Source: an uncultured Acidobacteriota bacterium (lineage in GTDB: Bacteria > Acidobacteriota > Thermoanaerobaculia > Multivoradales > UBA5704). Taken from it: a DNA stretch of 64,000 bases. The DNA lies in NCBI GenBank assembly GCA_963700145.1, contig OY969474.1:1856001-1920000 (forward strand). The letters run 5' to 3'. Position numbers and translations under genes: made by a program. How positions within the stretch are numbered: position 1 is the stretch's first letter; the number at the start of each line of letters is the position of its first letter. This document shows, piece after piece, positions 38,492 through 64,000 of the stretch. The notes beneath the pieces are model-generated. The model worked only from the letters and a program-made list of their open reading frames with translations. It did no database searches and had not been told where the DNA came from.

Positions 38492-38508
38492 CGAGAGGTC
38501 TCCCGCGA

Positions 38509-38910: not shown

Positions 38911-38982
38911 CGTGAAGCCCTCCTTTCAGTGACAGCCGCGTCCCTACAATATCCGCACCCCCTCATTCGTCTACAACCGCAG

Positions 38983-42882: not shown

Positions 42883-42947
42883 AGTTGCCGCTGTGCAGGG
42901 CGCGGGTGGCGCCGTAGACCGTCAGCTCCAGCCCGACGACCCCGCGC
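42883..42947. repeat. Direct copy of an internal M20 peptidase segment (40695-40759)
   Basis: 58 bp are identical (AGTTGCCGCTGTGCAGG...GCCCGACGAC); 65 bp match with one mismatch. Confidence 0.9.
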
Positions 42948-43001
42948 GGGGTCGGTCGAATCGAAGGCGGCGACCCAGATGCTGGCGTCGAGCGCGAGCA
43001 A
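42948..43001 (-). pseudogene. 5' stub of a PIN/VapC toxin
   Basis: LALDASIWVAAF..DP (the PIN N-terminal Asp motif) lies directly after the antitoxin and is then interrupted. Confidence 0.55.
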
Positions 43002-44893: not shown

Positions 44894-44973
44894 ACGCGAC
44901 CGAGGAGGTTGGTCCGCGCACGTCTCTGCTGTTCAACGAAAATAGCGGAGGAACCGGTGCTACTTGTAGGGAG

Positions 44974-45005
44974 ATGGTCGGCCTTCCTGGACAAATTTTG
45001 AACCG
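44974..45005. mobile_element. att-like remnant 2, immediately upstream of repA
   Basis: ATGGTCGGCCTTCCTGGACAAATTTTGAACCG. Confidence 0.45.
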
Positions 45006-45061
45006 GTCTCCTTCCTTAAGTCACTGCAAACACTACGCGAGGACCTCGCCAGGGAGGCGGC

Positions 45062-46012
45062 TTGAGCGCCCTGGGGGCGCTCGAGCTGCCATTCGACGGA
45101 ACCGCAGAGGAAGCGGGACCGCCACAGTTTCATCCAACACCTGTTGAGCGAGCCCCACGCCGCGGCGGCAGTCTCATCCGCCGAGCGCTCCTCCTCGACC
45201 AGGAGGACGCCTACTCCGCCGGCGAGATCGGCTTCCTCGCACGCGCCTTGGTGCAGGCGACCCTGCCGCACAGCGACCCCAAGTCCAACGAGTTCGTCCG
45301 CCGCAACGGCCATTTGACCCTGTCGATCCTGGCGCCGAGGAACGTCGGCCTGCCGTACGGGCGCTATCCCCGCCTTGTGCTCGCCTACCTCAGCACCGAG
45401 GCAGTGCGGCGCAAGACAAGGCGCATCGAGCTCGACCGGCACTTCTCCCGCTTCTGCGGAGCCCTCGGCATCCCGGCGACCACCGGCCCGCGGGGCTCGC
45501 TGCCCATGCTGCGCGAGCAGCTCCAGCGGCTCTTCGCCTCGACCTTCCAGTGCATCTACCACTGCGAGGGCGAGGCGTGCCATGCCGCTGAGGGATTCTT
45601 GATCGCCGAGAAGCGGGCTCTCTGGTGGGACTCGGGCGACGGCGATTCCGGGAGTGGGTCTTACGTCGAGCTCTCGGAGCGCTTCTTCGTCGAGGCGACC
45701 GAAGCGCCGGTGCCGCTGGACATCCGCGTGCTCCGCGCGCTCCGCTCGCCATTCGAGATCGACCTCTACGTCTGGCTCACCTGGCGGTTCTTCCGCCTGC
45801 GACGACCAGTAACCATCCCCTGGGAGTCGCTGATGCTGCAGTTCGGCTGCAGCTACACGAACCCGCGCCACTTCCGCAAGCGCCTCCTCGACTACCTCCG
45901 CAGCGTCCTGCTCTTCTATCCAGAAGCGCGCCTGGAGGCCCGGGCGACTGGGCTTCTGCTGAAACCATCGCCGACGCACGTACCCCCGCGCGTCCTGCCG
46001 ATGAAACTGTGA
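45062..46012 (+). CDS. repA: Plasmid-type replication initiator (RepA_C / pBBR1-like)
   Basis: GFLARALVQATLPHSDP, FVRRNG.LTLSI, GLPYGRYPRL.LAYL.TEAVR, LREQLQRLF, PVPLD.RVL.AL, DLYVWLTWR, IPW.SL.LQFG. Confidence 0.85.
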   Translation: MSALGALELPFDGTAEEAGPPQFHPTPVERAPRRGGSLIRRALLLDQEDAYSAGEIGFLARALVQATLPHSDPKSNEFVRRNGHLTLSILAPRNVGLPYGRYPRLVLAYLSTEAVRRKTRRIELDRHFSRFCGALGIPATTGPRGSLPMLREQLQRLFASTFQCIYHCEGEACHAAEGFLIAEKRALWWDSGDGDSGSGSYVELSERFFVEATEAPVPLDIRVLRALRSPFEIDLYVWLTWRFFRLRRPVTIPWESLMLQFGCSYTNPRHFRKRLLDYLRSVLLFYPEARLEARATGLLLKPSPTHVPPRVLPMKL

Positions 46013-46091
46013 CGCTCGAAGGCGTGGCGGCTGGAAGCAGGAGCCGCGAGGCCGCGCTGGCGGCCGCCGTTGGTCTGTAAGTCTCGGTTCC

Positions 46092-46240
46092 TCAGACACC
46101 CGCCGCCGGGTAAGGAAAACTCGATGGCGCCGCGAGGCCGAGCTCGGACACGTTGCGGCGCAGAGCAGCGTCGGAAGCGGCATAACCCCAGTTGATCAGC
46201 CGCTCCTGGAGAACGCGCGGAAGAGCGGCGACGGCAGCGG
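46092..46240 (-). pseudogene. Probable C-terminal remnant of a patatin-like phospholipase
   Basis: LQERLINWGYAASDAALRR....PSSFPYP resembles the end of bacterial patatin proteins (from recollection); no catalytic N-terminal part is present. Confidence 0.4.
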
Positions 46241-46464: not shown

Positions 46465-49400
46465 CTACACCGTGAGCTCATTCTGCTTCAAGTTCACCAA
46501 CCCCGAGGAGTTCACGACCAGGACCCGGAACCGATGATAGAAGGGGTTGCCGGCGCTGTTCTCCTTGAGAAGGACGCCCGTTCCGAGCGTCGTGTCCTGC
46601 AGCTTTACCTGCATGACCGCCGCATCGCCGACGGAGGCGATCTTCACCCACATTCCGACATCGTTCAGTTTGTAGAGGTGGTAGGTGCCGTTGTACGTCG
46701 TGCGCGGCCAGCTCAGTTGCACGTTCGCGTACTGGAACGGATGCGTGAGCGACAACGGATCAGACGTCATGGTGATCTGCGGAGGTTCGGGATTGACGGT
46801 GTCCGCTACTCTCGCCGTGGCCATCTCCGAAGGCTTCGACGGGATCCTCTCCGGCAGTCCCTGTTCGTTGATGATGCTGCGGAAGGCGAGAACGCGGTAG
46901 TGGATCGGCTGCGCGAACGGAACGTAGCCAAGGTCGGCGAAGTCGTCGAACACCGGATCGCCTAGCATGAACTCCCTCACTTCGGTCATCGTGCGGACGT
47001 TCAACGCATCGTCGGCGTCGAGAGAGCGGTACAGCTTGTAGCTGGTGACGCCTTCGCTCGGCAGGTAACCGCTTAGCAGGAAGTCGACCCGCGGCGTTGC
47101 TCCCGCTCCATCGTCGAGTTGCGCCGTCACCTTGCGGATCACCGGCGCCTCGGGCGGCGCGGCGTTCACCAACTGCACCGGGCCGGTGATCGGGCTGCGC
47201 GCGCTCACCTTCATGGTGCTGCTCAGCTCCACCGCGAAGTAGAAGTAGACGTTGGTCGAGGCGCCGTCGATGGTGTAGTCGGTGATGCGGACCCACCGCG
47301 TGTTCGTGGCGCTGCCGTGGCCGGGATCGCCGTCGTGCATCACGTCGCCGTTGGCGTTCTTCTCGTAGCGCACGGCCATCGGCCACGGATCGGCGTCGTC
47401 CGGTGGGAGGCGCTGGCCGTTGGGGCTGCGCAGCTTCGGCGGGCGGCCTGACGTCTGGAGGGTCTTGTCGTTCAGTTGCTGGTAGATCAGCGGCAGCTCG
47501 GTGATCGGGACGAACGCCTTCTCGACCGCTTCCTGCACCACCGACTTCATCGTCCGCCCGCCGGTTCCCGGCACGACGGCGCTGCTGCCGGGAGGCGTGG
47601 TGTTGTTCAGCGCGAAGGGGAAGACCGGCGGGTCGAGCGACGGATCGGGAATGACGTAGGTGTCGTCGTTGGGGGGAGGAAAGCGAAAGCCGTCCAAGAC
47701 GTACTGGACGAACTCGTCGTTGGCGTCGGTGACGACGTGCACGAGGTCGCTCCACCGCTGCGGCTCGAATGTCTTCTCGAAATCCGACATGCCCTCGAGC
47801 CGTGCCACGATCTCGCGGGCCGTCTTTGGCTCATAGAGCTGATCGATGATCTTGCGGTCATTCGCCTTGTAGAAGACGAGCGCGTACGGATCGTCGACCT
47901 GGACGTCGACGGTGAAAGTCGCCTTGCCGAAGAAGTTGGGCCGGGTGGCGAAGAGCGGTCCGCGGAGCGGCCCCGGCGCCACCGGCTCGCGCAGCTCCTG
48001 CGCCAGGATCACGGCCGGCTTCGACATCCGCGACGTCAGGCTGGCGGCGGTCGCTCGCGAGCGAACCGTGAAGAGTGTCTGCCGCGAGCCCTCGCCGCGA
48101 GCGGGGAGAACGGCGGGCTCGCCGAAGTTGTGGCCGGGCGTGGTGACGTCGGCGGTCAGGTAGACGCGGTACGAGGGATGGAAGTTGACCGCCACGCTGC
48201 CGGTCTGCACCGGAACGTATCCGTCGACCGGAACGAACTGGGTTCCGGCGAGCAGGAACTTCCCGGAAACGGGATCGCGCTGCAGGCCGAGCTCGGCGTC
48301 GTACGCGATCACCTGCAGAGTCGCTCCGCTGTTGTCGACGTTCCACACCCGCAGCACCTTGGTCTTGCCGTTCAGATCCGGCAGCCGAACGATGCCTTCG
48401 CAGAGCTCGACGTCGGGATCGCTGCTGGCGGCGAGCTGCCGATTGGCCAGGGTGATGGTGTAGGCGCCGGAGGGGACCGAGGACGGCCCGCCCGCCGGAA
48501 TCGCCGCGACGACGCCGGGATCGAGGTCGGGAATCGCCACCACCGTCGCCGAGTCGGCGATGCCGCCAACCACGACGCTCCGGCCCTGGCCGTCGTTGTT
48601 GACGATGAACTCCATGAACGGCGGGGAGAACTGCGCCAGCGACACTTCCTTCGTCAGCTTGGTATCCCATACCGCCGGGTTGTCGAGGTTCTCCGCCATC
48701 AGGAAGCGGTCGCCGGCGTGCGGGCTGCTCCACTTTTCGACCGTGCAGAAGGAGTTGTCGTGGTCGGCGTCGACCGACGCCGTGGTGCGGATCTGCTGCA
48801 ACACCAGAGTCGGATTCGGTCCACTGCTGGTGACCGACTCGACCACCCACGACTGCCCGTTTGCCGTCAGGCGGGCGCCGACGTAGCGCTGAACGTCGGC
48901 GGCGGCGATCTCCGGCTGCACGATTTGCGGCGGCTTGGTGCTGGCGATCGGATACGACTTGGTGGTCACCGTCGTGGTGTGCGTCGACGGGTGGTCGGCG
49001 ACCGCCGCGATCTCGCCGCGCACCACCTGTGGCGGGAGCGTGCGGAAATAGAGCTCGACCGTGTCGACGCCGAAGTAGGCGCGGTTCTGGACGTCGTTCC
49101 AGTCGAAGGTCACGCGCAACAGCGTCTGGTCGCCCGCCGGCAGTTGGGCCAGGCGCAGCTGCTCGTCGGCCGAGGTGAAGATGCGCGGCTCCTCCTTCTG
49201 AATGAGCTGCACGGCGAGGTTCGACGGCGGTAGCAGCGTATTGCGCGGCGCAAACACCGTGGCGTCGGTCTGCACCTCGTTCGACGCCCCTGCCGTGCGC
49301 GAGAAGATGTTGATGCTGTAGAGCTGGTAGTGGTGCACTCCCGCGGACCGCTCGCCATGCGTGTAGACCGGATTGCTGCCGCGCTCCGGAATCGGCGCCA

Positions 49401-52245
49401 CTTCCGCGTAGCCGGCTGAATCGAGCCACGCGTCGTTGTGGCTCAGCTCCGGCCGCACGTCGTTGCCCGCTCCGACCGCTCCCGCGCCGTAACGGACGCC
49501 GAAGCCGACCGGTGTCGTTTCTTCGTAGAGGTTGAACTCATCCGCCGTCTGGAAGAACCCCTCCATCGGCATTTCATGCCGGAAGCGCGCGCGGTCGAGA
49601 TTGACGAAGCGGATCTGATCGAAGACGGCGTAGCCGTTGGCATCCGTCAGCGCCGAGGTCGTGCCCTCGCACTCCTCGGGCGGCAGTCCGTAGCTGAGGG
49701 CGATCGCCGGCGGCGGCGGCGGCCGGTGATCGGTGATCCGCACCGGCGGCGTCATGAAGCAATGCCTCACCGTCGACGCCGTCTCGTGCTCGAGCTGCGC
49801 CTCGGTGACGTATTGCATGAGGTAGATGAAGCGCGCCCCGCTGCCGGCGGTCGGGCTCGGATCGATGGTACCGAGGCCCAGCATCCGGGCGACGTGAAAG
49901 TCGAGCGAGACGAAGTTGAGCAGGTCGAGGTAGCTCAGCTCCGTGGTGGAGAGGTTGGTGACCGGGTCGGAGTTGGCGACCACGACGTTGGCGCCGACGG
50001 CGGTCCGGCTGGCGTCGAGATAGGTGATCACGCCCTGTTTCAGGCCGTCCGCCGGCAGCAGCCAGCGGTCGCGATAGCTCTGCGCGTTGACGCGGAACAC
50101 CCCGGGGTCGGAAACCTGCTGGAACTTCGGCCAGAGGTTGTCGACGACGACGTCCGGCGACTCTTCGAGGCGGCGGAAGACGTTGGTGTTGGCGTCCGCG
50201 TTGCCGTCGTCGAGGCTGTAGTCGCCGACCTTCTCCCATTCGCGCCGCGCGTTGGAGGTGTGGAGGAAGTCGTCATACGTAGCGATGTGCAGCCCGGTCG
50301 GAGCGAGACCCGAGTAGTCGAAGCGAACCGAGTCGATGTTCTCGCCGACGATCGAGGCATCGACGGCCGCGGCGAAGGTGCGCCGGCAGCCGATCCTGCG
50401 CGAAGTGTTGTCGAGCGGATCAGGAAGGGTCAGCGCCTCGAGGCGAAAATGCGGCGGACCGGTGGGAGCGCTGACGACCAGGGGGATGGCGACGGAAAAG
50501 GCGAGCTTGCCGATCGCGCGTGCCTCGACGACGCCGCGGTATGCGGCGATGAACTGCCGCGGAGCGGAGTGCGGATCGATCGTCTGCCGGACGGCGTCGT
50601 ACTCGGGGAGGTCGGCAAAGCGGATCGAGACGTCGGTGGTGCGGCCCGCCGACGGAACGAGGTCTTCGTACAGCCACTCCCGGAACGCACCGCTCTCGAA
50701 GAGCGCCGACGGCGGATGGGCGAAGTCGACGTCGACGCCGTAGTCGCTCTTCATCGCCGTCCTGAAGATGCGCACGAAGTCGTCGGCGCGGTTGTACCCG
50801 ATCGTCGCCGCCCACGGCCCGTTCGGCGCGGCGAGGTTCCCTTTCGGGAGGTGCGCCTTGCCCAGGCTGCGGAGCAAATCCCAGCGGAGATGGAAGCCGC
50901 GAACGGTGCGGTCGCTGAAGTCGGAGCCGGCGGCCTGCAGGTAGATGTAGGGCGATTGCACCCGCGCGCCTTCCAGCTCGATGCCGATCCCGGACGGACA
51001 GATCTCCGAGAGGATGGGCGTGACGCTGCGAACCGTCACCCGACGCGAGGTGACCTCCATGGTCACCCGCTCGATCTGGGCCGCCCAGTCCGCCGCGTCG
51101 AAGCGAACCCTCGCTGGCTCGGGCAGTGGGCGATCTCGGGTGACGCAGCTTGCGAGATCGCCGTCGGCGTAGGCGAGCAGCGGCCGGGTGTACGCCTGCG
51201 GCTCGGCGACGACTCCGCAGACGGCGAGGCCGCCGGCCGCGTCGCCGGCGTCCTTGATGTCGATCAGCGCCGTCGATCCGGGCAGCGCCAGCTCTCTCTG
51301 CCAGAGCAGCTCGAGCGACGGATCGAAACAGGCGACGAAGCTGCCGCGCGGCGCGTCGTTCACCGTCGCGGCGAGAAGGATGTTCCCCGCAGAGTTGGTC
51401 GGGCCGCCCGACTTGAGGAGCCGGCGTCCGCCCACCTCGGATTGCGGCCGGAACCTGTACACCTGCCCGGTGACCTCGGTGTCGTCCGGCGTCAGCTCGG
51501 CAACGAAGCTCCTGCGGCCGTCACCCGTTTCACCGGCGATGACGAACTTCGGACCGCTGGCGCCCACCGGAGGGGAGGTGTGAACGATGTCGACCGCCTG
51601 CTGAAACTGGGAATTGCCGATGACCCTCTTCCATGAGAGGTTCAGCTTGTCGTCGAGAGCGACGACGAAGCAGTCCCACGTCCCCCTTCCATTCGAGCCT
51701 CCGGCCAGCACGCAGCCGCCGGCGTACGGAATGAGAGAGTTGAGCTGGTCGTCGCCGCTAGTGTGGATGCTGAGCGCCGCCAGGACCTTGCCCTTCCCGT
51801 CGATCCTCGCCACTTCGACGTCGTCGGTGGTGCCGCGCTCGTTGTACCAGCCGGCGAAGATGTAGGTGTCGCCGCTTCCCCTCACCAGCCGGATGTTGAT
51901 GCGGGTGCGATCGCGCGCGTAGGAGTTCGCCCAGATCACCTCGCCGGCCGGCGTCAGGCGCATCACCAGGGCGTGGCTCTGGCTGACGCTCGTCACCAAC
52001 GAGCCGTGAACCATCAAGTCGCCGTTGGGGCAGCGGACGCCGCTCCAGAAGCGCAGCGGCCGGTTGGCGACGGTGTAGGTCTTCTGCCAGACGGTGCGGC
52101 CGTCCGCATCGATCGACGCCAGGAGCGCGACGGAGTCGGCGAACGTTCCGGCGACGATGAAGCCCTCGCCGGCGGCGTCGGCGGCGATGATGGCTCGATA
52201 CGACGCGTCCTCGCCGAAGGTGAAACCGTTGACGAAGTACGTCAC
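46465..52245 (-). CDS. Giant hypothetical protein (1926 aa): N-terminal beta-propeller plus beta-sandwich/FN3-like segments
   Basis: GTG 52245 overlaps the upstream stop. Blade-like repeats WQKTY, WANSY, WKRVIG, WQREL; later segments HYQLYSINIFSR, YKLYRS, HYRVLA, YHLYK; no signal peptide. Confidence 0.8.
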   Translation of the reverse strand: MTYFVNGFTFGEDASYRAIIAADAAGEGFIVAGTFADSVALLASIDADGRTVWQKTYTVANRPLRFWSGVRCPNGDLMVHGSLVTSVSQSHALVMRLTPAGEVIWANSYARDRTRINIRLVRGSGDTYIFAGWYNERGTTDDVEVARIDGKGKVLAALSIHTSGDDQLNSLIPYAGGCVLAGGSNGRGTWDCFVVALDDKLNLSWKRVIGNSQFQQAVDIVHTSPPVGASGPKFVIAGETGDGRRSFVAELTPDDTEVTGQVYRFRPQSEVGGRRLLKSGGPTNSAGNILLAATVNDAPRGSFVACFDPSLELLWQRELALPGSTALIDIKDAGDAAGGLAVCGVVAEPQAYTRPLLAYADGDLASCVTRDRPLPEPARVRFDAADWAAQIERVTMEVTSRRVTVRSVTPILSEICPSGIGIELEGARVQSPYIYLQAAGSDFSDRTVRGFHLRWDLLRSLGKAHLPKGNLAAPNGPWAATIGYNRADDFVRIFRTAMKSDYGVDVDFAHPPSALFESGAFREWLYEDLVPSAGRTTDVSIRFADLPEYDAVRQTIDPHSAPRQFIAAYRGVVEARAIGKLAFSVAIPLVVSAPTGPPHFRLEALTLPDPLDNTSRRIGCRRTFAAAVDASIVGENIDSVRFDYSGLAPTGLHIATYDDFLHTSNARREWEKVGDYSLDDGNADANTNVFRRLEESPDVVVDNLWPKFQQVSDPGVFRVNAQSYRDRWLLPADGLKQGVITYLDASRTAVGANVVVANSDPVTNLSTTELSYLDLLNFVSLDFHVARMLGLGTIDPSPTAGSGARFIYLMQYVTEAQLEHETASTVRHCFMTPPVRITDHRPPPPPAIALSYGLPPEECEGTTSALTDANGYAVFDQIRFVNLDRARFRHEMPMEGFFQTADEFNLYEETTPVGFGVRYGAGAVGAGNDVRPELSHNDAWLDSAGYAEVAPIPERGSNPVYTHGERSAGVHHYQLYSINIFSRTAGASNEVQTDATVFAPRNTLLPPSNLAVQLIQKEEPRIFTSADEQLRLAQLPAGDQTLLRVTFDWNDVQNRAYFGVDTVELYFRTLPPQVVRGEIAAVADHPSTHTTTVTTKSYPIASTKPPQIVQPEIAAADVQRYVGARLTANGQSWVVESVTSSGPNPTLVLQQIRTTASVDADHDNSFCTVEKWSSPHAGDRFLMAENLDNPAVWDTKLTKEVSLAQFSPPFMEFIVNNDGQGRSVVVGGIADSATVVAIPDLDPGVVAAIPAGGPSSVPSGAYTITLANRQLAASSDPDVELCEGIVRLPDLNGKTKVLRVWNVDNSGATLQVIAYDAELGLQRDPVSGKFLLAGTQFVPVDGYVPVQTGSVAVNFHPSYRVYLTADVTTPGHNFGEPAVLPARGEGSRQTLFTVRSRATAASLTSRMSKPAVILAQELREPVAPGPLRGPLFATRPNFFGKATFTVDVQVDDPYALVFYKANDRKIIDQLYEPKTAREIVARLEGMSDFEKTFEPQRWSDLVHVVTDANDEFVQYVLDGFRFPPPNDDTYVIPDPSLDPPVFPFALNNTTPPGSSAVVPGTGGRTMKSVVQEAVEKAFVPITELPLIYQQLNDKTLQTSGRPPKLRSPNGQRLPPDDADPWPMAVRYEKNANGDVMHDGDPGHGSATNTRWVRITDYTIDGASTNVYFYFAVELSSTMKVSARSPITGPVQLVNAAPPEAPVIRKVTAQLDDGAGATPRVDFLLSGYLPSEGVTSYKLYRSLDADDALNVRTMTEVREFMLGDPVFDDFADLGYVPFAQPIHYRVLAFRSIINEQGLPERIPSKPSEMATARVADTVNPEPPQITMTSDPLSLTHPFQYANVQLSWPRTTYNGTYHLYKLNDVGMWVKIASVGDAAVMQVKLQDTTLGTGVLLKENSAGNPFYHRFRVLVVNSSGLVNLKQNELTV

Positions 52246-55200
52246 GGCAGCACCACCTCGGCCTGAGCCGATTCGACGGGCGAGTACGCGGCGCCGTCCC
52301 ACTGCTTGTAGTCGAACGCGAAGCTGCAGGTGGCGCCGGCGGGGATGTTCATGCTCCCGCCGGCGTTGGTGACGAAGGCCCGCGAGAGGTCCTTGGAGTG
52401 AATGGCCAGGTAGTCGCTCTCGTTGCCGCCGTTGACGGAGAGGCGGATCGAGGTCGCGATCTCACTCGCCGGCAGCTTCGGATCGTTGAACGGCTCAGGA
52501 TTCCATACCAGGATGCCGAGGACGCGTGAGGTGGTGGTATCGCGAATGATGTTGAATTCCGTTCGTTGCGGCGGCGGCAGCGCCTCCATCTTCAGGGCGC
52601 CTTCCATGAGGCGGTTGAACGGATCGGCGAATGCCTGCTTCAGCGGATCGCCGTCGGCCATGCTGCCGTCGACGATGCTGGTGGCCACCGCAAGATCGGC
52701 AGCGTCGAACGCCTTCCCCGCCTCGAAGACGGCTGCCTTGAGCACGGTGCCGTCGCCTGCCACTTTCAGCGCATAGCTGCCGACCTGCTCGGCGAAGCTC
52801 GCATAGCGCGAGGTCTGGAAGCCGTAGTGCAGCAACTCGCTGTTGGTGTAGTCGGGTTCGCCCGGCTTCCTGAAACGCAGCCGGAAGATCGCGGTGTAGA
52901 GCTTCAGCGGCTGGAGATGCTGGGTGTCGAGCGGGAACTCGGAATAGAGCCAGGTCGGATGAATCTCCGCCACCGTCCCGCAAGGGGTGCCGTACGCGAT
53001 CATGTTGTTGAGGATCGTCACGTCCTGCGACACCAGCGGTAGGGGGCTGAGCTTCCACGTCGCCTCCACCGGCCCCGGGTCGGCGATGCTGGCGTCGGGC
53101 GCCGGGTCTTTCACCACCACGTCGAAGACGGCGTCCGCCGCCCCGAGCCCTCCCCATGGAGCCCAGCCGCAGAACATCCGCGCCACATAGGTCTGCAGAT
53201 AGAAGAGCAGCAGCTTCGGGTTGCTGTAGAAGAGCGGCTTGGCGTTGATCAGTTGCCCGTCGGCGTTGGGGTACGACTTGTCGAAGTCGAGGTAATGCAG
53301 GAGCCCGACGAGCTTGAACTCGTCGCCGTGGCCGGCCTGCTCCAGCTGGTGGAAGTCCGCACGCGGGACCAGCTGGCCGGTCGCGTCGCGATAGACGTGG
53401 AAGTGGCCGAGCGGTCCCGCGGTGCTGAATCCGAAGACTCGCGAGCTGCCGTCGTGCGGATAGAAGGTCTCGACGTTGCTGCTTCCCTCGCGGAAAAGGG
53501 TGTCCCGGGTGGTCACCCGAATGGCATAGCGCGTGTACGGCCGCCACAACGGCTGGATCGAGCCCTGAAACGCGTTGACGATGCTCGCCACCTCGGCGTC
53601 GACGCTGCTCTGGGCCGGAAGCGTTGCGTTGAATGCCGCCGACGGGTAGTCGAGCACACAGACCGCGTAGACGTAGACCGCGCACTCGCGGGTTGGCTCC
53701 GCATCGCTCCCGCCCGGCGGAGCGACGCCGCGTGGCGGGACGCTCGCCGCGGTCGGCAGCGCGGCCGGGCCGGTGGAAGCGGTGGTGTCAGGCGATGTGC
53801 CAACGGTGGCGATCGTGAACGGCGCCTCGCCCCGCAGCACCACCGTGCTCTCCCCTTCCCACGTCCGCACGCGCGCATCGACGAGGAATCCGCGGTTGGG
53901 GCCGTGCACGAGGTTGCCGGCGTCGGCACGGAGCGCGGAGAATCCGCTGACGGCGTCGAAAGTGAAGCTGGGCCGCGGCAGCGGCAGCGCCAGCGACACC
54001 GTTCCTCCCACCGCACCTTCGCTCAGCGAGATCTCGAGGCGCGGCAGCGCCGTGGGAGCGGGAGTGGCCGTGATCCAGACCTTGCGGCCGGAGACCGGGG
54101 AGTTGCGGCGGCCGGTGCTGAACGCGCGGTCGAACAGATCGGTCTCCTGCGGCGACAATTTTAGCCGGGGCTGCGCGAGGCGATTGTTCGCAGCAAGGTA
54201 GTCGAGCAAGCCGCCGAGCGCTTCCGCTTCCGCGGTCACCGGGCCCGGAGTCGGGACTCCGCTGTAAGCGCAGCGGCTGATCGGATAGCACGAACGGCCA
54301 CGGAAGGTGACGCGCTGGCGCCCTTTCGAGGTCAGCACCTCGCCGTCGATGAGGAAGGTGTAGTTCATCCCGGCGACCTTCTGCGAATCGGCGCGCAGGT
54401 TGCGCAGCACGGTGAGATGGACCCAATCGATCGCCCGCGCCCCTTCGATCAGCGTCAGGTCGATGAGACAGGTGAATCCCTGCCAGTCGGTGAGGCGTCC
54501 GTGCAGCTCCGTGCCGGTCGAGGAAACGAGGCTGTAGCGGTAGAAGTCGGGAGTCACCGGCGCGGCGTGAAGCGTCGACTCGAAGAAGGCGCCGTCCCAG
54601 ACCTGGTAATCGTGGACCAGCAGCTCCGCCCGGGCGCTGGTGTGCTCGCCGCGGTCGACCAGCAGCGCCAGGAAGCGCTCGAGGTCGCGCGCTGCCGGCG
54701 TCAGCGTCGGATCGCAGACCAGCGGCGGGCCGACGCTGCACGCGCCTGCCTCCACCACGATCTTGTCCACCGGTTCCTGGATGTCCTCGTAGAGCACCTC
54801 GACCGGTGCACCGCGCGGGATGCCGCGCGTGGCGACCAGCACGTAGTCGTAGGCGTCGAGCCCGTTCGGCGACGGCGGCAGCGCCTCGCGGCGGTAGTAG
54901 CGCACCGCGGCATGGTCGGTGCTGGCCTGCGCCTTGAGCCGCACCAGGACGGCCGGCTCGGTAAGGAAGATCTCCAACGCGCTGACGGCGTCCACTCTCA
55001 CGGCGCGCTCGAAGTCGCCCCATGCCTGGTCGAGCACGTGGCCGTCGGCTCCGGTGACGCGGAACTGGAACTGGTGATGGAAGAAGCGGCGGCGCTCCCG
55101 CAGCGTGACGATCTCCTTCGGCGCGCCGAAGTCGTTGAAATTCGTGCAGGTCTCGGCGATCGGGTCGGGTGCACAGAAGATCGACTCGCTGGTGATTCCC

Positions 55201-58200
55201 GAGTCTTCGGGGACGAAGTCGCCCGCTCCCTGCGAGACGTAGGTGAGAGGGGTCTGCGCCAGCACGCGCAGTTTGTTGTGGAGGTTCGGCTGCTGGTATT
55301 GCCAGAAGCCCTGCCTGAGCGTCGCCGGATCGCTGGTGATGAACGGCTTCAGCTGCGGCGGCACCGCCGCGCCGTAGATGTCGTACGGCTTCCACGCCGC
55401 ACCGTCGTGATAGAGGATCTCGACGGCGTCGAGGGTGTACTCGTGCCGCACCCGGTCGGTTTTTCCGCGCTGCGGGGCGACGAATTCGACGTAGTCGCTC
55501 CCCATCGTGTTGCCGCCAAACGCCGCGATCACCGGCGCCGACGGCTTCACCCCCTTCATGAGCTCGATGTCGACGTACGAATCGAGCGGAATCATGTGGC
55601 CGTCGAGGACTGCTGGATCGGGAGGAAGCGAGCTCCCCGCCCACAGTTCGTAGGTCTCGTGGGTATGGATGTTGAGCGCTTTCCCTGACTCCTGCAGGTT
55701 GTCCTTCAGCAGCTTGGTCTCGCTCAGGTCGAGGCTCTGATTGAAGATCCAGGTGAAGGCGAACTTGGCGCAGCGATCCTTCCGCAGCACGCGCACGCAG
55801 ACTTCGATCGATCCGGTGATGGTGAACGGCTTGGTCCCCTCCGCCGCCAGCGAGGCCGCGGCGCTGATGCCGAAGCCGAAGCCGAAGATGGAGATCTCGA
55901 CATTCCCGCCGATACGGATGGACGCGCCGATCTGCTTCGGCCGGAAGCTGATCCGCCCCGCCGTGTCGAGGTATGCGTGCAGCTCGGCCGACAGCGGTCC
56001 GAATTTCTTGCTGAGGTGATACGACGCTCCGGCACCCGCGCGGATCCCGGAGTTCGAGATCATGAAATAGAAATAGGCATCGATGATCGACAGCAGACGC
56101 ACCAGGACTCGCTCGCTGGCGGGCGTCTCGCGACCGATGTTCAGGTACCAGGCGAGCCCGTTCCCCCAGAAGAAGCCCATCTCGATGACCGCGTCGACGG
56201 TGACGATGCCGCCCGCTTTCTTGCCGTCGCTGTCGTCGTCGGGCACCGCGTACTTCAGGCCGAACGCCGTCTCCACCGAATTCTTGGTGACGGCGATGAG
56301 GGCGAAGAACGGCGGATCGGTCTTGTCGGTGAGGAGGATGCGCCCCTTGAGAATCTGCCCCTGCCCTTGCAGGAGGAAAGCGTCCGGCAGCGACAAAAGG
56401 AAAAAGATCTTGGCGGCGAAGGTGTAGCCGGTGTCGGCCACGGTGGCCAGCGACACGCCGGCGCCCAGCGAGAAGCCGGGAATCCGCGCGAACTTCGAGA
56501 CCTGGATGCCTTCGCGGTTGTCAGGCGCGATTTTCTTCTTGTAGTACTTCCACCATGGATCGGCGTCGGTGAGCTGCAACGCCTGAACGTTTTTCGACGC
56601 CACGTAGCGCAGGCCCAGCAGCCCTCGGAATCCGAAGATGCCGAGCCCCGTGGAGCCAAGGAGGATCGGCGTGGAGATCTCCAGCCCGACATCGACGAGG
56701 AACGCCGGCACGTCCGGACTGAAGCGCATCGAGGCCGCGCCACCCATCTTCAGCTTCGGCAGGGTGAAGGCGATCGACCCCGCGTACTCCGTGCCGCTCG
56801 ACGGCGGATCGGCCGCGCGCATCGAGAGATAACCCTTGAGCAGCAGCACCGCGCTCTCCGGCGACGCGCTCCCGGGGAACACCAGGTCGAGGGCGATGCT
56901 CTGAATGCGCATGAAGCTGTGCGGATCGCGGCCGGCGTTCGTGTCGTTGTCGACCGTGTAATAGAACGCGATCCCGCTGCCGCTGACGTCGACCCCGCCC
57001 GGATTGACGCTCACCCCGCCGTCGAAGGTGAAGTACTTGTATTGCCGCAGCGTCCCCTTGTGCATCTGCTCGTGCGAGCCGAAGCCGATCGCCGTCACCG
57101 ACAGCTTCACCGGCCCCACCTTCAGCGACACGGCGCGCGGGAGGGTGATCTTCCCGCCTTCCAGCTCGATCTTTCCGTCATCCCAGATAAGCAGCTTCTG
57201 GATCTCGATCTTGTCGGGGAGGAACTTGCCGATCGCGCCGCCCTGGGTGAAGTCGACGGCGCCGGCCACGGCGACGAAGAAGCGCTTGTTCTTCCGGCCG
57301 ACCGAGAAGCTGTTGACGATGAAATCGAGCACGCCCGGGATGCGCAGGGCGCGAATGCCCTGATCCTCGGAGGCGGTGACGCTGAAGTTCCCGTCGTTCC
57401 CGATGTTGACCGCGATCTTGATCTCGGCGTCGTTTCCGGCGGTGTCCTTGAAGTTCGGAATCTTCATGAACCCGCGAATCTCGGACCGGGTGAGGACGTT
57501 CTGGTGGAAGGAGACGCTGACCGCGCTGAGGCCGAGCACGAAGCCGGAGCCGAACTGCGCCTTCACCAGTGCCGGCGTAGTCGACGACGAGTTGAGCGCC
57601 TTCAGTTCGATCGTTCCCGACAGGCCGCCGTGGCCGCCGATGAGCAGGTTCCTGCCGATCAGCTCCGCGCTCGACGTCGGGCTCTGATTGAAGAAGTCGG
57701 GAAGGGTGATGACCGCCTTTTCGATGAAGACGCCGATGAAGTCGTCCGGCCGGCCGTCCGCCGTCGCCTCGGGAATGTTCTTGGTGCGGCTGAGATCGAG
57801 GCGCGCCTTCTTGACCTCGATCGCGAATCCGCTCTCGCCGATCTGCGACGGCGTCAGGTTGGCGGTCAGGGTCTCGTCGTAGCCGATGCCCGACTCTGTG
57901 CTGAAGGAAAACCTGCCGGCGTCGAAGGTCAGCCGGGAGAAGGCGGTCGGGTCGGGGTCCGGCTTGCCGTTCTTGAGCGGCATGAGCACGTTGCGCGGAA
58001 AGCGGAGAGCCGCGCCGATCTTCAGCGTGGCGTGGACGCGCGGCGTCACCAGGTCGAGGAAGTAGGTCTTGAGCGACCCGCCGAACAGGCTGCCGAGGAA
58101 CTCCTCCAGCCGCTTTTCGGTCCCCTCCAGGTCGAGATCGTTGAGGATGTACGTGGCGAAGACGACGGCCGACGCGCCCTGGCCGAGCGTGGTCTCGATC

Positions 58201-58744
58201 TTGGTGAGAGCCTCGCCGAGCGGGTCGGCGCCGAGCGGATCGACGGGGTGATGGCCGTCTGATAGGCCTCGTTGAGATCGAGGACGAGCTGGTCGAGCCG
58301 GTCGAGCGGACTGGCGCCGGCGACGAAGATGCCGAGGGCACGCTCGAGGAGCTGGCGCTCAGTCAGGCCGGTGGCGGTGAGGGCCAGCTGGTAGAAGTCG
58401 GCCGGCGAGAACGAGAAGGTGGAGAAGTTGAACTGGCGAAGCCAGGCCAGGATGCCCCACTCGTAGCGGAGCGTCACCGGGAACTCCGATCGCCCGCCCT
58501 GATGTCCGGGATTGAGCTCGAGGAAGAGGCCGGTGCCCGGCACCTCGAAGTCGAGCAGCTTCCCGCTGACGATGATCAGGCTGTAGTTCGCGGCGTCGCC
58601 GCGCGGGCTGACGCTGTACTGCAGGTCGCGGAAATAGAGGCCGTCGAAGATCTTCTCGATGCCGTCCTTGACGAAGCTCAGGGCCTCCGGCAGCTTGTCG
58701 GTCGGCACCAGCAGAGAAAGCCGCGGGTAGTAGACGGCGGTCAT
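52242..58744 (-). CDS. Giant beta-strand-rich hypothetical protein (about 2167 aa) with a 1-nt frameshift at 58245-58248
   Basis: The 232-aa and 1935-aa ORFs join if one base is added to a C4 run, giving ...AYQTAITPVDPLGADPLGEALTKI...YFLDLVTPRVHAT... Confidence 0.8.
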
Positions 58745-58756
58745 CGGCGCGTCTGG

Positions 58757-61700
58757 CTACAGGCCCGCGAGAGCGCGCCTGATCAGCTCCTCCACCTGAT
58801 CGACGACGGCGGTGATGCCGTTGGTGACCTTCGACGCGAAGGGGATGTGGATGTGGCCGGTCAGCGTCAGGCTGTGGCGCGTCTCGCGCTCTCGCGCGAC
58901 GCGGTAGAAGACCTCGTTGGAGAGAAAGTCTCCGCCGGATCCTTTCACTGCCTCGGCCGTTGGCGTCGCGGCAGGATTCTTCTTGTTGTCGTTGACGTCT
59001 CCCTCGCGCGGGTGAAACTGGGAGGCAGTGGTCAAGGTTCGATAGGACTGGTCGAAAAACACCTTTTGAGAGTGGTCGGGCGGGGAGAGGAAAGGGCCGA
59101 GAACCATCTTTTCGACCGGCAGCGTCGACTCGTAGAAAGGAGCCCACGTCAAGTCGGAGTCGCCGATTTGTTGCGGGATGAGCCGGCGCTCGTTGGCGTT
59201 ATCCCGAGTCGACCATCCCCGCTGTCGTCCCGCCAGGCGTTCCACGTCGTACCCTTCGACAGGGATCTGAGAGTCCAGGCTGACGGTCACGATCATCGCC
59301 GCACACGTCGGGTCGGGCGTCTGTCCCATCAGCCATTTGCCAGCGAGCTTCTCCACCGCGCCGGCGTCGAAGTCGGCGTAGCGCACCGGGAACACGGCCG
59401 ACTCGACATACGCTGTCTTTCCCGATCCGGCGATCGTTGTCCCGTGGAGCGCCAGGGCGACGGCTCCTGAGGGATTTAGCCGGTACTCGAGACCCTCCGG
59501 AACGTAGGGATCGAAGCCGGTCACCAGGACCCGCAGCGAGTCTGCAGGGGCATTGGCAAAGTCGAGGTCGTAGCCGCGCGACCGCTCTTCGAGCGAGACC
59601 AGCAGCGGCGTGGGGTCTTGGGCGGGTTCTTCGGAGAGCGAGCGGCAGAACTCGTGGCTCTTCAGGGCCACCGCCATCCGCAGGCGGGCGTAGTAGAGCG
59701 ATCGCGCCGCTTCGTCCGCGGCGGCGCGGTCATCGTTCGCCAGCCACCGCGCGCGCTTCAAGATCTTGCTCGCCGCCGTGTCGACCAGCGCCTGCAGCGA
59801 CGACTTGGCGTTGGCGTCGGAGGCGGCGACGAGGTTGATGGCGCCGACGAAGCCGTCGACGAGCGCGCGCAGGCTGGGGATGCCGTTGGGGTTGGCCGGC
59901 CGGTAGTCGCGGTCGATGAAGAAGTCCTCGACCGTCCGCGCGATGGTGAAAACGCTCCCCCACGGTGCGTCGGTCAGTAGCACCGGCGAGCCGCTCAGCA
60001 CGATGACCGTATCGGTCCCGTTGAACGTCACCGAGGCCGCCGTATATGGCCCGTCATTGTTTTCCGATCCCGAGATCTCCAGGCTGTTGCCGGCCACGAG
60101 CTCGGAGCGCCAATCGTCGGCGGCGATGGTGATCGAGGAGGTCGCCACGTCGACCGCGTCGATGCGCCGCTGCCGGACCGGCCAGGGATCCGCACCCCGC
60201 GCTTCCTCCCAGTTGCGCCCGTATGGCCCGGGCGGCGGCTCGGCGGCGGCGAAACCGGGCGAGGCGAAGACGCGGCCGTCGACCGAATAGACGTGGATGT
60301 CGGCGGAGGGGAACTCCGACGCAGGCGTGCCGTCGGTGGCCAGACCGCGCACGCCGAGGCGGTAACGGTCGGCGCTGGCACCGCCATTGGTCACGGTGGT
60401 CTTGCCGTCGAGGATCAGGGTGCGGTCGTAGTCCGTCGTCATCGTCGTCGCGCCGAGGCCGCGCAGCGTGGTCAGCTCCGCATCGGTCACGCCGACGAGC
60501 ATCGCGCCGGTCGGCGGGTAACCCTCCTCCGCACTCTGCCGGAGGCTCAGCGTGCGCACCGGCGCATTCGCATCGACCACCACTCCTTGGTCCAGTCCGT
60601 AGAGGCCGAAGAGGCCGCGCTCCTGGAAGAAGCTCGCTGCCGAGCTCACGCCGTCGGGCACACCGCGCACGGGGACGAATTCGGGATCCTCGAAGTCGGG
60701 AGCGGTCGCCATCGCGTACAGCAGCGATCGTGGTGTGGGACCGCTCTGCTGGGCGATGCCGGTGCGCATCATCTGCCGCCAACCCTGAGTGCCCTCGGCA
60801 TCGACGTAGTGGCTCGGCTGCACCGTCGCCCACTTGATGACCGGGTCGCTGACCGCGACCGGCGTCGCCCAGCCATCGGTACGGTCGATCGGGCCGAAGA
60901 TGTTGTCGGTGTAGGTCGCGGTGGGAACGACGCCGGGTTTGGGCGGCGGCGGCGTGGCTGGCGGAAGCACTTCGCGACGGCCGTAGTAGAGCCTCAGCGG
61001 CCAGGCAACGTTGACCTTCGTGGTGGAGAGATTCGGGAAGCGAAGGCCGACCGGCGCCGTCCACGGAGCGGTTCCCAGCTCGTCGCCGCGCAGGAACGGC
61101 CCGCCCGCGGCCGCGGCGAGCAATGGACCGTGCTCGACAAAGAGAACCGGATCGACGTTGTCGTCGCGCCGCAGGCTGACGTGAAGCTCGTTGTGGTCGG
61201 CGTTGGGATCGGCGGCGGCAACGGAGTCGAGGAGCACGATGGGCCAGCCGTCGGTGGCGTAGGCCTGTGCGGTCACTGATGCCGCTGAGGTGCCGGTCTG
61301 GATCTGATGGCCCGATCCGTCGTCGTAGTTGCGGTGGAAGTTGAGCGACCGTCCGTGCTCGCTGCGGACGTCGAGATAGAGACGATGCTGCGTTGCAAAG
61401 TGCGAGACGACGGTGTTGAAGATCTCCTCGCCGTCGAGTGAAGGCCCGCCCGGGACCTCCACCCGGCCACCCTCGTGCAGGTGGAGGCCGTAGAAGGCAG
61501 CGGGATCTAGGAACGCCAGGATCTCGTCCTTCTTCAGCCGCCGCGCCAGATCGTCCGTTTGCATGGCGCCGATGTCGATCACATTGGCGGCACGCCGCGC
61601 ATACCCGAGGTCGGGGAAGTAAGCATTGTCTTCGAGCACGATCTCGAAGCCGAAATCGAAGGCGCCACCGGCGGCGTGGAAGAGGCCGAGCGGAGTGCCC

Positions 61701-64000
61701 TTCGTGACATAGGGAAGCTGCTTCTCGGTGTCGAGCCGGAAGAAGAGGTTCTGCAGCGTGTCGCCGTCGGCCGCGGCTGGGTCGTAGCCGAGAAAGGTCG
61801 ACGAGATCGTCGTCGCCGACGGATTGAGGTCCTTGAAAGCGGTCCACAGGGCGGCGATGAACGCCGAAGCCCCCGCCTCGTCGCGAACGCGCTTTTCGTC
61901 ATTCGTGGAAGAGCCGCCGAGGAATTCGTCAAGCCGCAGCCCGCGATAGATGAAATACCGCACCGGAGGAAAGCCGGCGACCGGCTGGGTGAGAGGCCGC
62001 AGGATGAGGTTCACCGCGACGTTGCTGCCGGCCTGCCGCTGCACCGCCACCACGCCGTCGGTGACGGCGTAGGCCTGCGTATCGTTCGGCGCGTGGAAGA
62101 GAGCCGTGGTTCGGTATTTGGTGGCCGGAGTCCCGTCGACGGGTCCGAAGCCCTGACTCACTGACTGCGTGAGCGAGGCAACGTCGGCAAAGACGAACGA
62201 CGCCGGCTTCGGCTGCGCCGCGGCGGCCGCCTGTCGCGCGCCGCCCGGCTGCGGGGCGACGCTGTAGATGGCGACGGTGTGAGCTTCCGAGGCGACTGGG
62301 AACTCGCGAAATGCGCTGAGGATCTCCGGCTCGAAGATGAGATCGGTGAAGGTCCGGTCGACGGTGAAGTCGAGGTCGAAATGGATGTCGAACTGCTCGC
62401 CGGTGGCCGGGACCTCGGTGCCATCAGGCCGCCGCGCTTCCACCGGCGGCTTGACCGTCGCCCACGGCGTGGCGATGTCCCAACCCCACCCGTTCGCATA
62501 GCGGAAATAGCGGATCTCGTCCGCGCCGGCCCGCTTCTTCGCCGTCACCTTCACCCGCACACGTTCCGTCTCGAAGGTGCCGGCCGTCATTCGCACTTCG
62601 ACGCGGATCGACTTCGTCTTCGCCGTGCCGACTTCGTCGACGTCGAGGTGCCCTTCGGCGGGATCCGCGCCGCCGTTCCTGGTGAAACGGAACTTCGCGA
62701 ACACCAGCTCGCGGAAGGAGATGTTGTTGTTGGTATCCGCAGTCGTGCCCTGGAGAGCTCCGTCGTGGGGCACGACCTCGCCGAGGGCGAAGAGGCGCAT
62801 GGAGCGCGCCGGCTTCGGGAGGTTGGGGCTGTTCGTCGGCGGACGCAGCGCCTCGGGCCACGTGGCGGTGAAGATCTTCGTGCTGTTGTCGGGGTCCGTG
62901 GCGGGTGCCAGCGACGGCACTTCCTCCTCCTTCAGCCGGCGCGTTCCCGCTTCACCGGTGGCGGGATCGAACGCTCCGGGGTTCACCTCGTCGACATCCC
63001 AGTAGTGGTCGAGGTTCAGAAAGCCGGCGGGCATGGGGCGGGCGGCGATTTCCCAGCGGTCGCCCTCCGTGTGCCCGCCGGCCGAGGCGAACACCACGGA
63101 CACGCCGAAGTCGAGCAACTGCGGCGCCCCCGCGGTGATCGCCACGGACGGCGCTTTCGGCGTGCCGTTGAGGAACCATCGGAAGTGGGCGCCGGAGGCC
63201 AGGATCTCGACCGTGTAGCGCGCTCGATCGGCGCCGTTGTAGGTGCCGCGGACCTGGAGATCGTTCACGCCATGGCCGTAGAAGCGGCAGACCGGCGAGC
63301 CGTCGCTCGCGCACAGCAGCACCCGCGCTTGGGTGACCGGCAACGCGCCGGCAAGCGCGGAACGCGCAAACGTTTCCTTCGCGCCGCGGTTGTGGACGCG
63401 CAGGTGGAAATGGCGTTCCGTCAGTGCCCTCGCCTTGACGAGCCAGCGGTCGCCCACCGTGTGTCCGGCGCTGACCGCGAACCGGATGCTCACGCCGTCG
63501 CTGAGCGGTTGCGCCGCGCCCGTGATGGCAACGCCCGTCGCGCCGGCAACGCCGTCGCGGCTCCACTTGAAGGTGTCCGGCGCCTTGGTCTCGATCTCGA
63601 TCGTGAAGGTGATTTCCGCCGCGCTGGTGCAGACACCGGAGACTTCCAGATCGTTCTTGCCGGCACCGACGAAGATCGCCGGATCGACGGTGACCCGGGG
63701 ATGCTGATGGTTGCCGGGATCATCGTAGGTGAGGAGCACGGTGGGAGCGTCGTTGCGGATCCAGATGTCGGGACTCTCGACGTCCTTCGTGCCGCGATTG
63801 GACGATCCGTCGTCCTCGAGAAAATTACGGATCATCAGGTCGCGGTCGTGCTGGTAGCTCTTCGCCGCTTTCACCGCCTCGAGCGCGTCGATCCGCCCGT
63901 AGCCGTAGCCGTAGCTGTACGTGGCGACGAGCCCCACACTCACCGGCTCCCCCATCTCGTGAAGATGGAGAAGAGGATCGATCTCGACTTTCGTCCCGGC
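58757..64000 (-). CDS. Giant multidomain protein (5' part outside the window): S8-peptidase-like tail, repeated beta domains, C-terminal pyroglutamyl-peptidase (C15)-like domain
   Basis: The frame is open to the window edge. YGYGRIDALEAV followed by DLMIR...ESPDIWIRN; C-terminal VLVTGFDPY, NPSG..ALALHG, FPVRY.DFD, GGDFLSNEVFYR, GHIHIP. Confidence 0.8.
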   Translation of the reverse strand, partial: AGTKVEIDPLLHLHEMGEPVSVGLVATYSYGYGYGRIDALEAVKAAKSYQHDRDLMIRNFLEDDGSSNRGTKDVESPDIWIRNDAPTVLLTYDDPGNHQHPRVTVDPAIFVGAGKNDLEVSGVCTSAAEITFTIEIETKAPDTFKWSRDGVAGATGVAITGAAQPLSDGVSIRFAVSAGHTVGDRWLVKARALTERHFHLRVHNRGAKETFARSALAGALPVTQARVLLCASDGSPVCRFYGHGVNDLQVRGTYNGADRARYTVEILASGAHFRWFLNGTPKAPSVAITAGAPQLLDFGVSVVFASAGGHTEGDRWEIAARPMPAGFLNLDHYWDVDEVNPGAFDPATGEAGTRRLKEEEVPSLAPATDPDNSTKIFTATWPEALRPPTNSPNLPKPARSMRLFALGEVVPHDGALQGTTADTNNNISFRELVFAKFRFTRNGGADPAEGHLDVDEVGTAKTKSIRVEVRMTAGTFETERVRVKVTAKKRAGADEIRYFRYANGWGWDIATPWATVKPPVEARRPDGTEVPATGEQFDIHFDLDFTVDRTFTDLIFEPEILSAFREFPVASEAHTVAIYSVAPQPGGARQAAAAAQPKPASFVFADVASLTQSVSQGFGPVDGTPATKYRTTALFHAPNDTQAYAVTDGVVAVQRQAGSNVAVNLILRPLTQPVAGFPPVRYFIYRGLRLDEFLGGSSTNDEKRVRDEAGASAFIAALWTAFKDLNPSATTISSTFLGYDPAAADGDTLQNLFFRLDTEKQLPYVTKGTPLGLFHAAGGAFDFGFEIVLEDNAYFPDLGYARRAANVIDIGAMQTDDLARRLKKDEILAFLDPAAFYGLHLHEGGRVEVPGGPSLDGEEIFNTVVSHFATQHRLYLDVRSEHGRSLNFHRNYDDGSGHQIQTGTSAASVTAQAYATDGWPIVLLDSVAAADPNADHNELHVSLRRDDNVDPVLFVEHGPLLAAAAGGPFLRGDELGTAPWTAPVGLRFPNLSTTKVNVAWPLRLYYGRREVLPPATPPPPKPGVVPTATYTDNIFGPIDRTDGWATPVAVSDPVIKWATVQPSHYVDAEGTQGWRQMMRTGIAQQSGPTPRSLLYAMATAPDFEDPEFVPVRGVPDGVSSAASFFQERGLFGLYGLDQGVVVDANAPVRTLSLRQSAEEGYPPTGAMLVGVTDAELTTLRGLGATTMTTDYDRTLILDGKTTVTNGGASADRYRLGVRGLATDGTPASEFPSADIHVYSVDGRVFASPGFAAAEPPPGPYGRNWEEARGADPWPVRQRRIDAVDVATSSITIAADDWRSELVAGNSLEISGSENNDGPYTAASVTFNGTDTVIVLSGSPVLLTDAPWGSVFTIARTVEDFFIDRDYRPANPNGIPSLRALVDGFVGAINLVAASDANAKSSLQALVDTAASKILKRARWLANDDRAAADEAARSLYYARLRMAVALKSHEFCRSLSEEPAQDPTPLLVSLEERSRGYDLDFANAPADSLRVLVTGFDPYVPEGLEYRLNPSGAVALALHGTTIAGSGKTAYVESAVFPVRYADFDAGAVEKLAGKWLMGQTPDPTCAAMIVTVSLDSQIPVEGYDVERLAGRQRGWSTRDNANERRLIPQQIGDSDLTWAPFYESTLPVEKMVLGPFLSPPDHSQKVFFDQSYRTLTTASQFHPREGDVNDNKKNPAATPTAEAVKGSGGDFLSNEVFYRVARERETRHSLTLTGHIHIPFASKVTNGITAVVDQVEELIRRALAGL

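Follow-up and report, generated by a model that had tools for sequence, protein, structure and literature searches.

What do three giant, tightly packed genes contribute to a bacterium when two of their products match no protein family? The question is raised by a stretch of 64,000 nucleotides, called the window throughout (positions 1856001-1920000 of contig OY969474.1, assembly GCA_963700145.1), from the genome of an uncultured Acidobacteriota bacterium of the Thermoanaerobaculia, which is assembled as a single contig of 5.46 Mb. The genes, here named g1, g2 and g3, lie on the minus strand from the far end of the window down to position 46465, and a first-pass annotation of the window had taken them for a candidate novel secretion, toxin or defence machine. 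The work reported here establishes gene anatomy, conservation, synteny, mobility, the predicted folds of two parts of g2 and catalytic-residue patterns, and the cassette emerges as one of a family that recurs yet has not been described, distinct from each known system tested. With a probability of roughly 0.4, we read its product as a complex that lacks signal peptides, is released, binds a target and bears exchangeable enzymes.

Gene anatomy and conservation of the cassette

Four minus-strand open reading frames (ORFs) are listed for this region, at 46465..52302, 52242..58049, 58046..58744 and 58757..64000, and in them the three closely packed giant genes of the first-pass annotation are readily recognized. 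g1 runs off the end of the window (58757..64000, >1747 aa, as had been noted), and extending the sequence with the genome beyond 64 kb completes it as a protein of 2636 aa (P0006; ORF L006:760-8667, minus strand) that starts at 66667, so that the window holds its C-terminal 1747 residues; all positions above 64000 are window-equivalents obtained by this extension. The g1 stop codon TAG (58759-58757) is followed by 12 nt and the ATG of g2 at 58744, and the TGA of g2 overlaps the GTG of g3 as GTGA at 52245-52242. Both junctions agree with the earlier description. The overlap places the start of g3, which therefore measures 1926 aa (46465..52245), compared with the 1945 aa of ORF 46465..52302 when counted from the furthest start. 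Consensus scans for promoters upstream of g1 and terminators downstream of g3 returned 0 sites. Neither a signal-like N-terminus nor a strongly hydrophobic 19-residue window was found by a crude hydropathy scan (maximum Kyte-Doolittle value 1.65), in line with the earlier reading that signal peptides and obvious transmembrane helices are missing.

A scan of one genome per species identified contigs with 189 relatives, mostly from Bacteroidota, and 79 loci were analyzed. In 75 of the 79, tblastn places a g3 relative directly downstream of g2 on the same strand; three of the four remaining contigs end inside g2 and the fourth (L075) ends 1.9 kb after it. For the g1 core, tblastn detects a same-strand relative upstream in 58 of 79 loci. 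Clustering of the ORFs over all loci yielded three conserved families only, namely g2 (80/80), g3 (74/80) and g1 (63/80), and none of the other ORFs of the window neighborhood is common to the related loci. The three genes thus form one conserved unit, and the triad recurs in other genomes as the first-pass annotation had supposed it would. Database searches widen this picture: g2 retrieved 170 relatives at E<=1e-3, all named "hypothetical", and its C-terminal module 398 representative proteins at E<=1e-3 (306 at 1e-30) among 1.84 billion. Since the genes are both tightly coupled and conserved, their three products very likely make one assembly.

The g2 gene, which had been described as one frame of about 2167 aa, is present, but it is split by a frame change that the earlier description overlooked, giving ORFs of 232 aa (58046..58744) and 1935 aa (52242..58049). 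The 232-aa ORF seems to leave the frame of g2 for its final ~65 residues, and the frame used by the 1935-aa ORF extends, without a stop, upstream as far as 58358. The intact relative P0011, also from Thermoanaerobaculia, aligns at 70-73% identity in two frames (residues 1-169 in frame 1, 168-350 in frame 3), which locates a single -1-type change on the minus strand at 58241-58247, beside a run of four C; residues 5-161 of the 232-aa ORF product (P0003) correspond to residues 3-159 of a 2175-aa relative with an unbroken frame (E 1e-14). Because the g2 relatives are one uninterrupted protein each (2100-2200 aa; 1950-2500 aa for most of the 120 listed), programmed frameshifting is unlikely, and we rejected it on the ground of these unbroken frames. 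It follows that the g2 copy described here is inactive, unless the change is an assembly error in a homopolymer.

Domains and predicted folds of the three proteins

Searched against Pfam and NCBIfam, g1 alone was recognized, and g2, g3 and the g1 core returned nothing significant. The same three had no match in PADLOC or PHROGs, the S8 part of g1 being the only PHROGs match, and searches of the ESM Atlas reached unnamed clusters only. Against PDB sequences, neither the g3 protein, the g3 profile nor the g1-core profile matched at E<=1, and the g2 profile found three chance-level matches to Cas8f-HNH chains (E 0.75-0.9). We therefore describe the proteins part by part.

In g2, the N-terminal domain lies in its own frame at 58245..58744 (-), the first ~166 codons of the 232-aa ORF as delimited by alignment to relatives, and has tblastn matches in 70 of 79 loci. 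The main body follows at 52242..58243 (-), of which 52242..58049 is the annotatable ORF. Structure models cover two parts of the protein, the 1180 aa after the frame change and the C-terminal 491 aa. The AlphaFold2 model of the former (62-sequence alignment, pLDDT 79, pTM 0.47) shows, in this order, four helices, ~45 long antiparallel strands (model residues 71-834), a mixed region and a beta-sandwich. The strands, encoded at 55743..58034 (-), form a DUF6603-like sheet of ~760 aa in which hydrophobic and polar residues alternate as read from the sequence, and the Gly-rich alternating stretch reported earlier is indeed present in the translation. The sheet is accordingly modelled as a very large amphipathic meander. 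Foldseek searches of the PDB with this model gave TM scores of at most 0.19, with LptD at probability 0.97-0.98, ushers, and Rhs/Tc cocoons at 0.1-0.25; VIA-align related the sheet to porins, Tom40, TamA, MtrB and the ApoB100 belt (Z 10-12.6, root-mean-square deviation (rmsd) 8-12 Å), and weak fold matches to phage tail or fibre proteins were found in BFVD. The sandwich at 54735..55163 (-) resembles a carbohydrate-binding module (CBM), as model residues 1028-1170 align with 8wc1_A over 119 residues (VIA-align, Z 10.6, rmsd 2.7 Å). The conserved C-terminal module, at 52245..53717 (-), consists of FN3/Ig-like sandwiches according to alignment A6 and the 491-aa model (pLDDT 88.5, pTM 0.80), whose best folds are FN3-like (Z <= 6.7) and in which no enzyme fold was found; the loops PEPFNDPK, YPNADG and FQTSRY are nearly invariant in alignment A6.

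A relation to the DUF6603 giants, suggested in the first-pass annotation, finds some support among the relatives of g2: seven of the 120 listed carry PF20248, and a neighboring Atlas cluster has it in 16% of its members. These giants share with g2 a long beta-strand region that ends Gly-rich. They differ in that the window g2 has no Pfam family at E<=0.1, PF20248 included, and DUF6603 is itself a catalogue entry without an attached function. No paper naming DUF6603 or PF20248 was present in the searched literature, and nothing relevant appeared in the titles and abstract openings returned by a broader term search. One g2 relative carries Toxin_R_bind_N together with Laminin_G_3. The host genome encodes a second, distant DUF6603-type giant outside the window (2970 aa, C1:21785-30697; L086 13785-20000 and L087 1-4697), with 28% identity to g2 residues 64-840, 25 bits on PF20248, two lectin-like 3keto-disac_hyd domains and a Rax2-like propeller; the ORF in front of it, of 1519 aa, weakly matches the g3 C-terminus.

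g3 falls into two parts. The conserved body of ~1500 aa, with the stop codon, occupies 46465..50964 (-) and is covered in 71-73 of 74 relatives, and the variable N-terminal part of ~427 aa, at 50965..52245 (-), a putative beta-propeller in the first-pass annotation, is common to ~11 of 74 and has no Pfam match. Scanning 27 g3 relatives with Pfam gave a single match, to CBM_4_9.

The recognizable enzyme domains reside in g1. Its "subtilase-like tail" proved to be the C-terminal end, at 63863..64000 (-), of a Peptidase_S8 domain that extends beyond the window (residues 255-647, E 4.3e-15), and PDB subtilases match residues 587-657. D261, H313 and S614 lie in motifs resembling those of the S8 triad; an Asp-His-Ser triad in an S8 fold is thus present and looks intact. 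A weak CarboxypepD_reg match lies at the N-terminus. At the other end of the protein, the predicted C15-like peptidase was recovered as Pfam Peptidase_C15 (residues 2379-2522, E 5e-7, 30.5 bits against a cut-off of 22.7), within a C15-fold domain at 58760..59533 (-) that contains E2476, S2583 and H2607, presumably the catalytic set. Pyroglutamyl peptidase I, the C15 enzyme, is similar at the level of this fold match and of the kept Glu and His positions; it differs because g1 has Ser in place of the nucleophilic Cys, carries large insertions in the domain and fuses it into a 2636-aa protein. Of 13 aligned sequences, 9, among them g1 of the window, retain all three of Ser, the GHxHxP His and a Glu/Asp, and 5 have lost both Ser and His. 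The Glu-Cys-His triad of C15 is not found: Ser stands in 9 of 13, other residues in the remaining 4-5, and Cys in none. The joint retention and joint loss of these residues speak for a functional Ser-His-acid site in some of these domains.

Between the two enzyme domains, the earlier claim of repeated beta modules holds for two modules of ~85 aa, at 63419..63673 (-, ~residues 999-1083) and 63029..63283 (-, ~residues 1129-1213), which are true repeats by pairwise local alignment (score 159 against a shuffle mean of 27; z 27, 500 shuffles). BLAST self-comparison at E<=1e-3 found no internal repeats, and the g1 repeat emerged by the direct pairwise test. The conserved core follows at 61118..62200 (-, ~residues 1490-1850; tblastn and blastp coverage) and is the only part of g1 common to nearly all related loci (55-57 of 58 relatives). 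Forty-five of these relatives begin at the core, and the other 13 are extended by a long N-terminal arm, the part that holds the S8 domain in the window copy. Because this arm is present in only 13 of 58, the S8 protease is an accessory head and not a fixed part of the cassette. Pfam scanning of 77 upstream pieces identified S8 in 10, CHAT in 1 and patatin in 1.

Distribution, island borders and state of the copy

By record title, the 79 loci comprise 66 from Bacteroidota, where the first-pass annotation had placed similar clusters and where they are indeed commonest, 8 from Acidobacteriota, 2 from Planctomycetota, 2 contigs of metagenome-assembled genomes (MAGs) labelled Proteobacteria and 1 unassigned, with phyla assigned from the genus names. 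The two contigs labelled Proteobacteria may be mis-binned. In one of them, L029 (MAG labelled Hydrocarboniphaga), flanking genes cluster, as ORFs, with those around two Bacteroidota loci, L028 and L077, so that this contig may be a mis-binned one rather than a proteobacterial carrier. Within the host's own phylum, 2 of 301 sampled genomes match, the other match being partial with 30% identity. No relatives were found in IMG/VR viral contigs.

The cassette lies in a segment with island-like borders. GC content is 0.64-0.68 over 44-64 kb versus 0.69-0.78 in most of the rest of the window. A tRNA-Pro(cgg) gene is located at 67792-67868, and an att-like direct repeat (15-nt exact seed in a nearly identical block of ~60 nt) has its left copy at 44914..44972, followed by a degraded tRNA-3'-like stretch, and its right copy at 67732-67790, abutting the tRNA-Pro 3' end. 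A 27-nt piece of the tRNA 3' half has no match in the window; the repeat sits just outside the tRNA. Together the direct repeats bracket a low-GC segment of ~22.8 kb with essentially nothing in it besides the operon and an integrase-like remnant. The low GC, the att-like repeats at tRNA-Pro and the 2 of 301 genomes of its own phylum support the view, raised in the first-pass annotation, that the cassette was acquired horizontally.

Several observations concern the surroundings. The remnant is a 144-aa ORF (67379-67813; L006 9379-9813, plus strand) that runs into the tRNA-Pro 3' end and resembles an integrase-type tail with no Pfam match; its last ~60 nt are the right repeat copy. Beyond tRNA-Pro lie fatty-acid genes, among them one named long-chain acyl-CoA synthetase in the source record and an ORF that reads like a 3-hydroxyacyl-CoA dehydrogenase. 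The ~1.5 kb from the left repeat to g3 holds no recognized gene; a 407-aa ATG ORF 3' of g3 (44960..46183, minus strand) is Arg-rich, has no Pfam match and is unconserved, and we rejected it as a likely out-of-frame artefact. Left of the island border are a Zeta_toxin/AAA_33-like ORF (43492-44121, -) and a STAS-domain ORF (42450-43001, -), and an ECF-type sigma factor ORF lies at 38479-39567 (+). In Pedobacter sp. R-06, tandem pairs of a 182-aa IS200-like Y1 transposase and a 216-aa ORF are found upstream of the cassette (L055 2683-6800).

Whether this particular copy still works is a separate question from the function of the cassette. It could be a decaying relic in which the frame change is real, the integrase a fragment and the operon dead whatever its ancestral role, a tentative reading that we would sooner bet against than for. 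The frame change at 58241-58247 speaks for decay, as do the reduction of the integrase to a 144-aa remnant beside tRNA-Pro without a Pfam match and the contigs from one public sequencing run. Two such runs match part of the stretch, X2 as a diverged relative and X1 with contigs identical to the window where aligned and no indel listed. The aligned span of X1 may exclude the base in question, however, and X1 is possibly the sample of origin. Against decay, g1 and g3 are complete and match relatives over their whole length, the defect is a single one in 20 kb, and a frame change in a homopolymer is a common long-read error. No RNA run is listed among the public runs that match the stretch.

Possible function of the cassette

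The coupling and conservation of the genes, the extracellular type of the recognizable modules and the missing signal peptides, taken together, lead us to favor a complex that acts outside the cell. Modules of this type are S8, CBM-like, FN3-like and lectin-like, and some neighbors are fibre-like or cell-wall/lipid enzymes. Complex formation, export, target binding and antagonistic function are steps that we infer, and the roles of scaffold or pore, receptor-binding subunit and protease-bearing subunit proposed in the first-pass annotation are likewise putative. The three co-translated giant proteins would act as one large assembly with g2 as its invariant backbone, composed of the small N-terminal domain, the ~760-residue sheet, the CBM-like sandwich, a variable middle and the FN3-like sandwiches. 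g3 would be a second all-beta structural subunit with ~1500 conserved residues and a variable head, and g1 an adaptor whose core of ~360-700 residues bears exchangeable enzyme heads, in the window copy a C15-fold Glu/Ser/His hydrolase and an S8 subtilase whose triad looks intact. As the recognizable modules are of extracellular type yet no signal peptide is present, the complex would be built in the cytoplasm and exit by a non-Sec route such as lysis. It could then bind a target surface and act on it with its enzymes, and perhaps with the amphipathic sheet. In that case the cassette product would be a particle resembling a toxin or bacteriocin, with no relation to Tc toxins or phage tails. A bolder version, which we regard as doubtful, is that the family represents an unrecognized class of toxin- or bacteriocin-delivery particle, made of two giant all-beta proteins and an adaptor with swappable proteases, lipases and cell-wall hydrolases, independent of Sec, unrelated to Tc, contractile injection systems and Rhs, and spread across phyla on islands.

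Pfam scanning of 66 ORFs downstream of g3 identified Peptidase_S74 in 3, BppL_N and Shufflon_N in 2 each, and YadA_head, Amidase_2, Peptidase_M15_4, Patatin and PG_binding_1 once each, next to plainly unrelated genes. Such small counts of accessory domains in flanking pieces are compatible with a released complex and are not proof of it. A predicted complex between the g2 C-terminal module and g3 residues 420-920 scored 0.00, run without controls, and is evidence neither way. Several points weigh against a released, target-binding complex. No known homolog links any part to export, binding or toxicity, and ORF clustering of the loci revealed no lysis, holin or secretion gene conserved with the cassette. 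The fibre-like and cell-wall-enzyme neighbors are few (1-3 of 66 each) and perhaps unrelated flanks, and proteases also occur in intracellular defense systems. The structural models cover two parts of g2, and the matches of the sheet (TM <= 0.19, rmsd 8-12 Å) are loose enough to suit a pore, a shell or a groove alike. Finally, g2 is frameshifted here, so this copy may do nothing.

One alternative is an intracellular anti-phage or abortive-infection system, with the beta-rich giants as sensors of infection and the S8, C15-fold or CHAT proteases as its effectors. The island adjoins the Zeta_toxin/AAA_33 gene, the distribution is patchy, signal peptides are missing and the protease heads are exchangeable, one CHAT included, all of which would suit such a system. 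All four ORFs, however, matched 0 families of PADLOC-DB v2 (2023), no NTPase, nuclease or nucleotide-signalling domain was found, the CBM-like, FN3-like, S8 and lectin-like modules are typical of extracellular proteins, and the fibre-like neighbor genes point outward; we consider this alternative unlikely. Somewhat less probable still is an envelope structural or transport device, with the g2 sheet as a lipid groove, an outer-membrane barrel of the AsmA/TamB/LptD kind, a surface layer or an adhesin. Long runs of antiparallel amphipathic strands with hydrophobic/polar alternation are common to g2 and the LptD, AsmA-TamB and ApoB100 sheets, LptD tops the Foldseek list, and porin, TamA and the ApoB100 beta-belt are found at Z 10-12.6. 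These fold matches are loose by both TM and rmsd, and the cassette has neither a signal-like N-terminus, a membrane anchor nor a match to an AsmA, DUF490, TamB or LptD family. Its genomic surroundings are those of an accessory rather than a housekeeping locus: were it an essential envelope device, one would not expect it in only 2 of 301 genomes of the phylum or in a tRNA island.

A part in a phage-tail-like machine (an extracellular contractile injection system (eCIS), a tailocin or a type VI secretion system (T6SS)) or in a Tc/Rhs toxin complex is close to refuted. Tc (ABC) toxins, which are released without the Sec pathway, resemble the cassette in being island-borne operons of giant signal-less subunits with a large beta-sheet component and protease activity. 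They differ in subunit sizes and order, and the TcA pore/shell, TcB, SpvB and Rhs/YD cocoon families are missing from g1-g3 in Pfam and NCBIfam searches; the matches to Rhs/Tc BC cocoons reach only probabilities of 0.1-0.25 with TM <= 0.07. With the BFVD tail and fibre matches and the S74 and BppL_N fibre-type domains in few neighbors, these weak similarities are what speaks for such a machine. In opposition to it, TM scores stay at or below 0.1, no relative occurs in IMG/VR viral contigs, and no sheath, tube, baseplate, spike, VgrG, PAAR, ATPase, Rhs/YD or TcA gene was found in the cassette or the scanned flanks, as the first-pass annotation had already remarked for Tc, Rhs, VgrG, sheath and tube families. 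Polymorphic toxins, eCIS and tailocins are alike in logic, with a conserved core, exchangeable enzyme heads and fibre-like genes in few loci, and unlike in that no protein family common to them and the cassette was found, no immunity gene was recognized and no relative of the cassette appeared in viral contigs. The cassette maps to none of the described systems tested and its three genes co-occur in other genomes, so that neither outcome which the first-pass annotation named as refuting its proposal was observed.

The released, target-binding complex that we favor would matter beyond this host. The cassette, which occurs in Bacteroidota, Acidobacteriota, Planctomycetota and others, devotes ~20 kb and ~6700 codons to a conserved machine, and the window adds to it a high-GC host outside the Bacteroidota, clear island borders and the combination of an S8 head with a Ser-type C15-fold head. 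Cultivated carriers exist among Pedobacter, Mucilaginibacter, Sphingobacterium, Chryseobacterium and Flagellimonas strains, which makes the proposal directly testable. If it is true that the three proteins form a delivery or attack complex, they would represent a new architecture in bacterial antagonism and a new enzyme-carrying scaffold; if they do something else, the cassette would still be among the larger conserved blocks of unexplained protein sequence.

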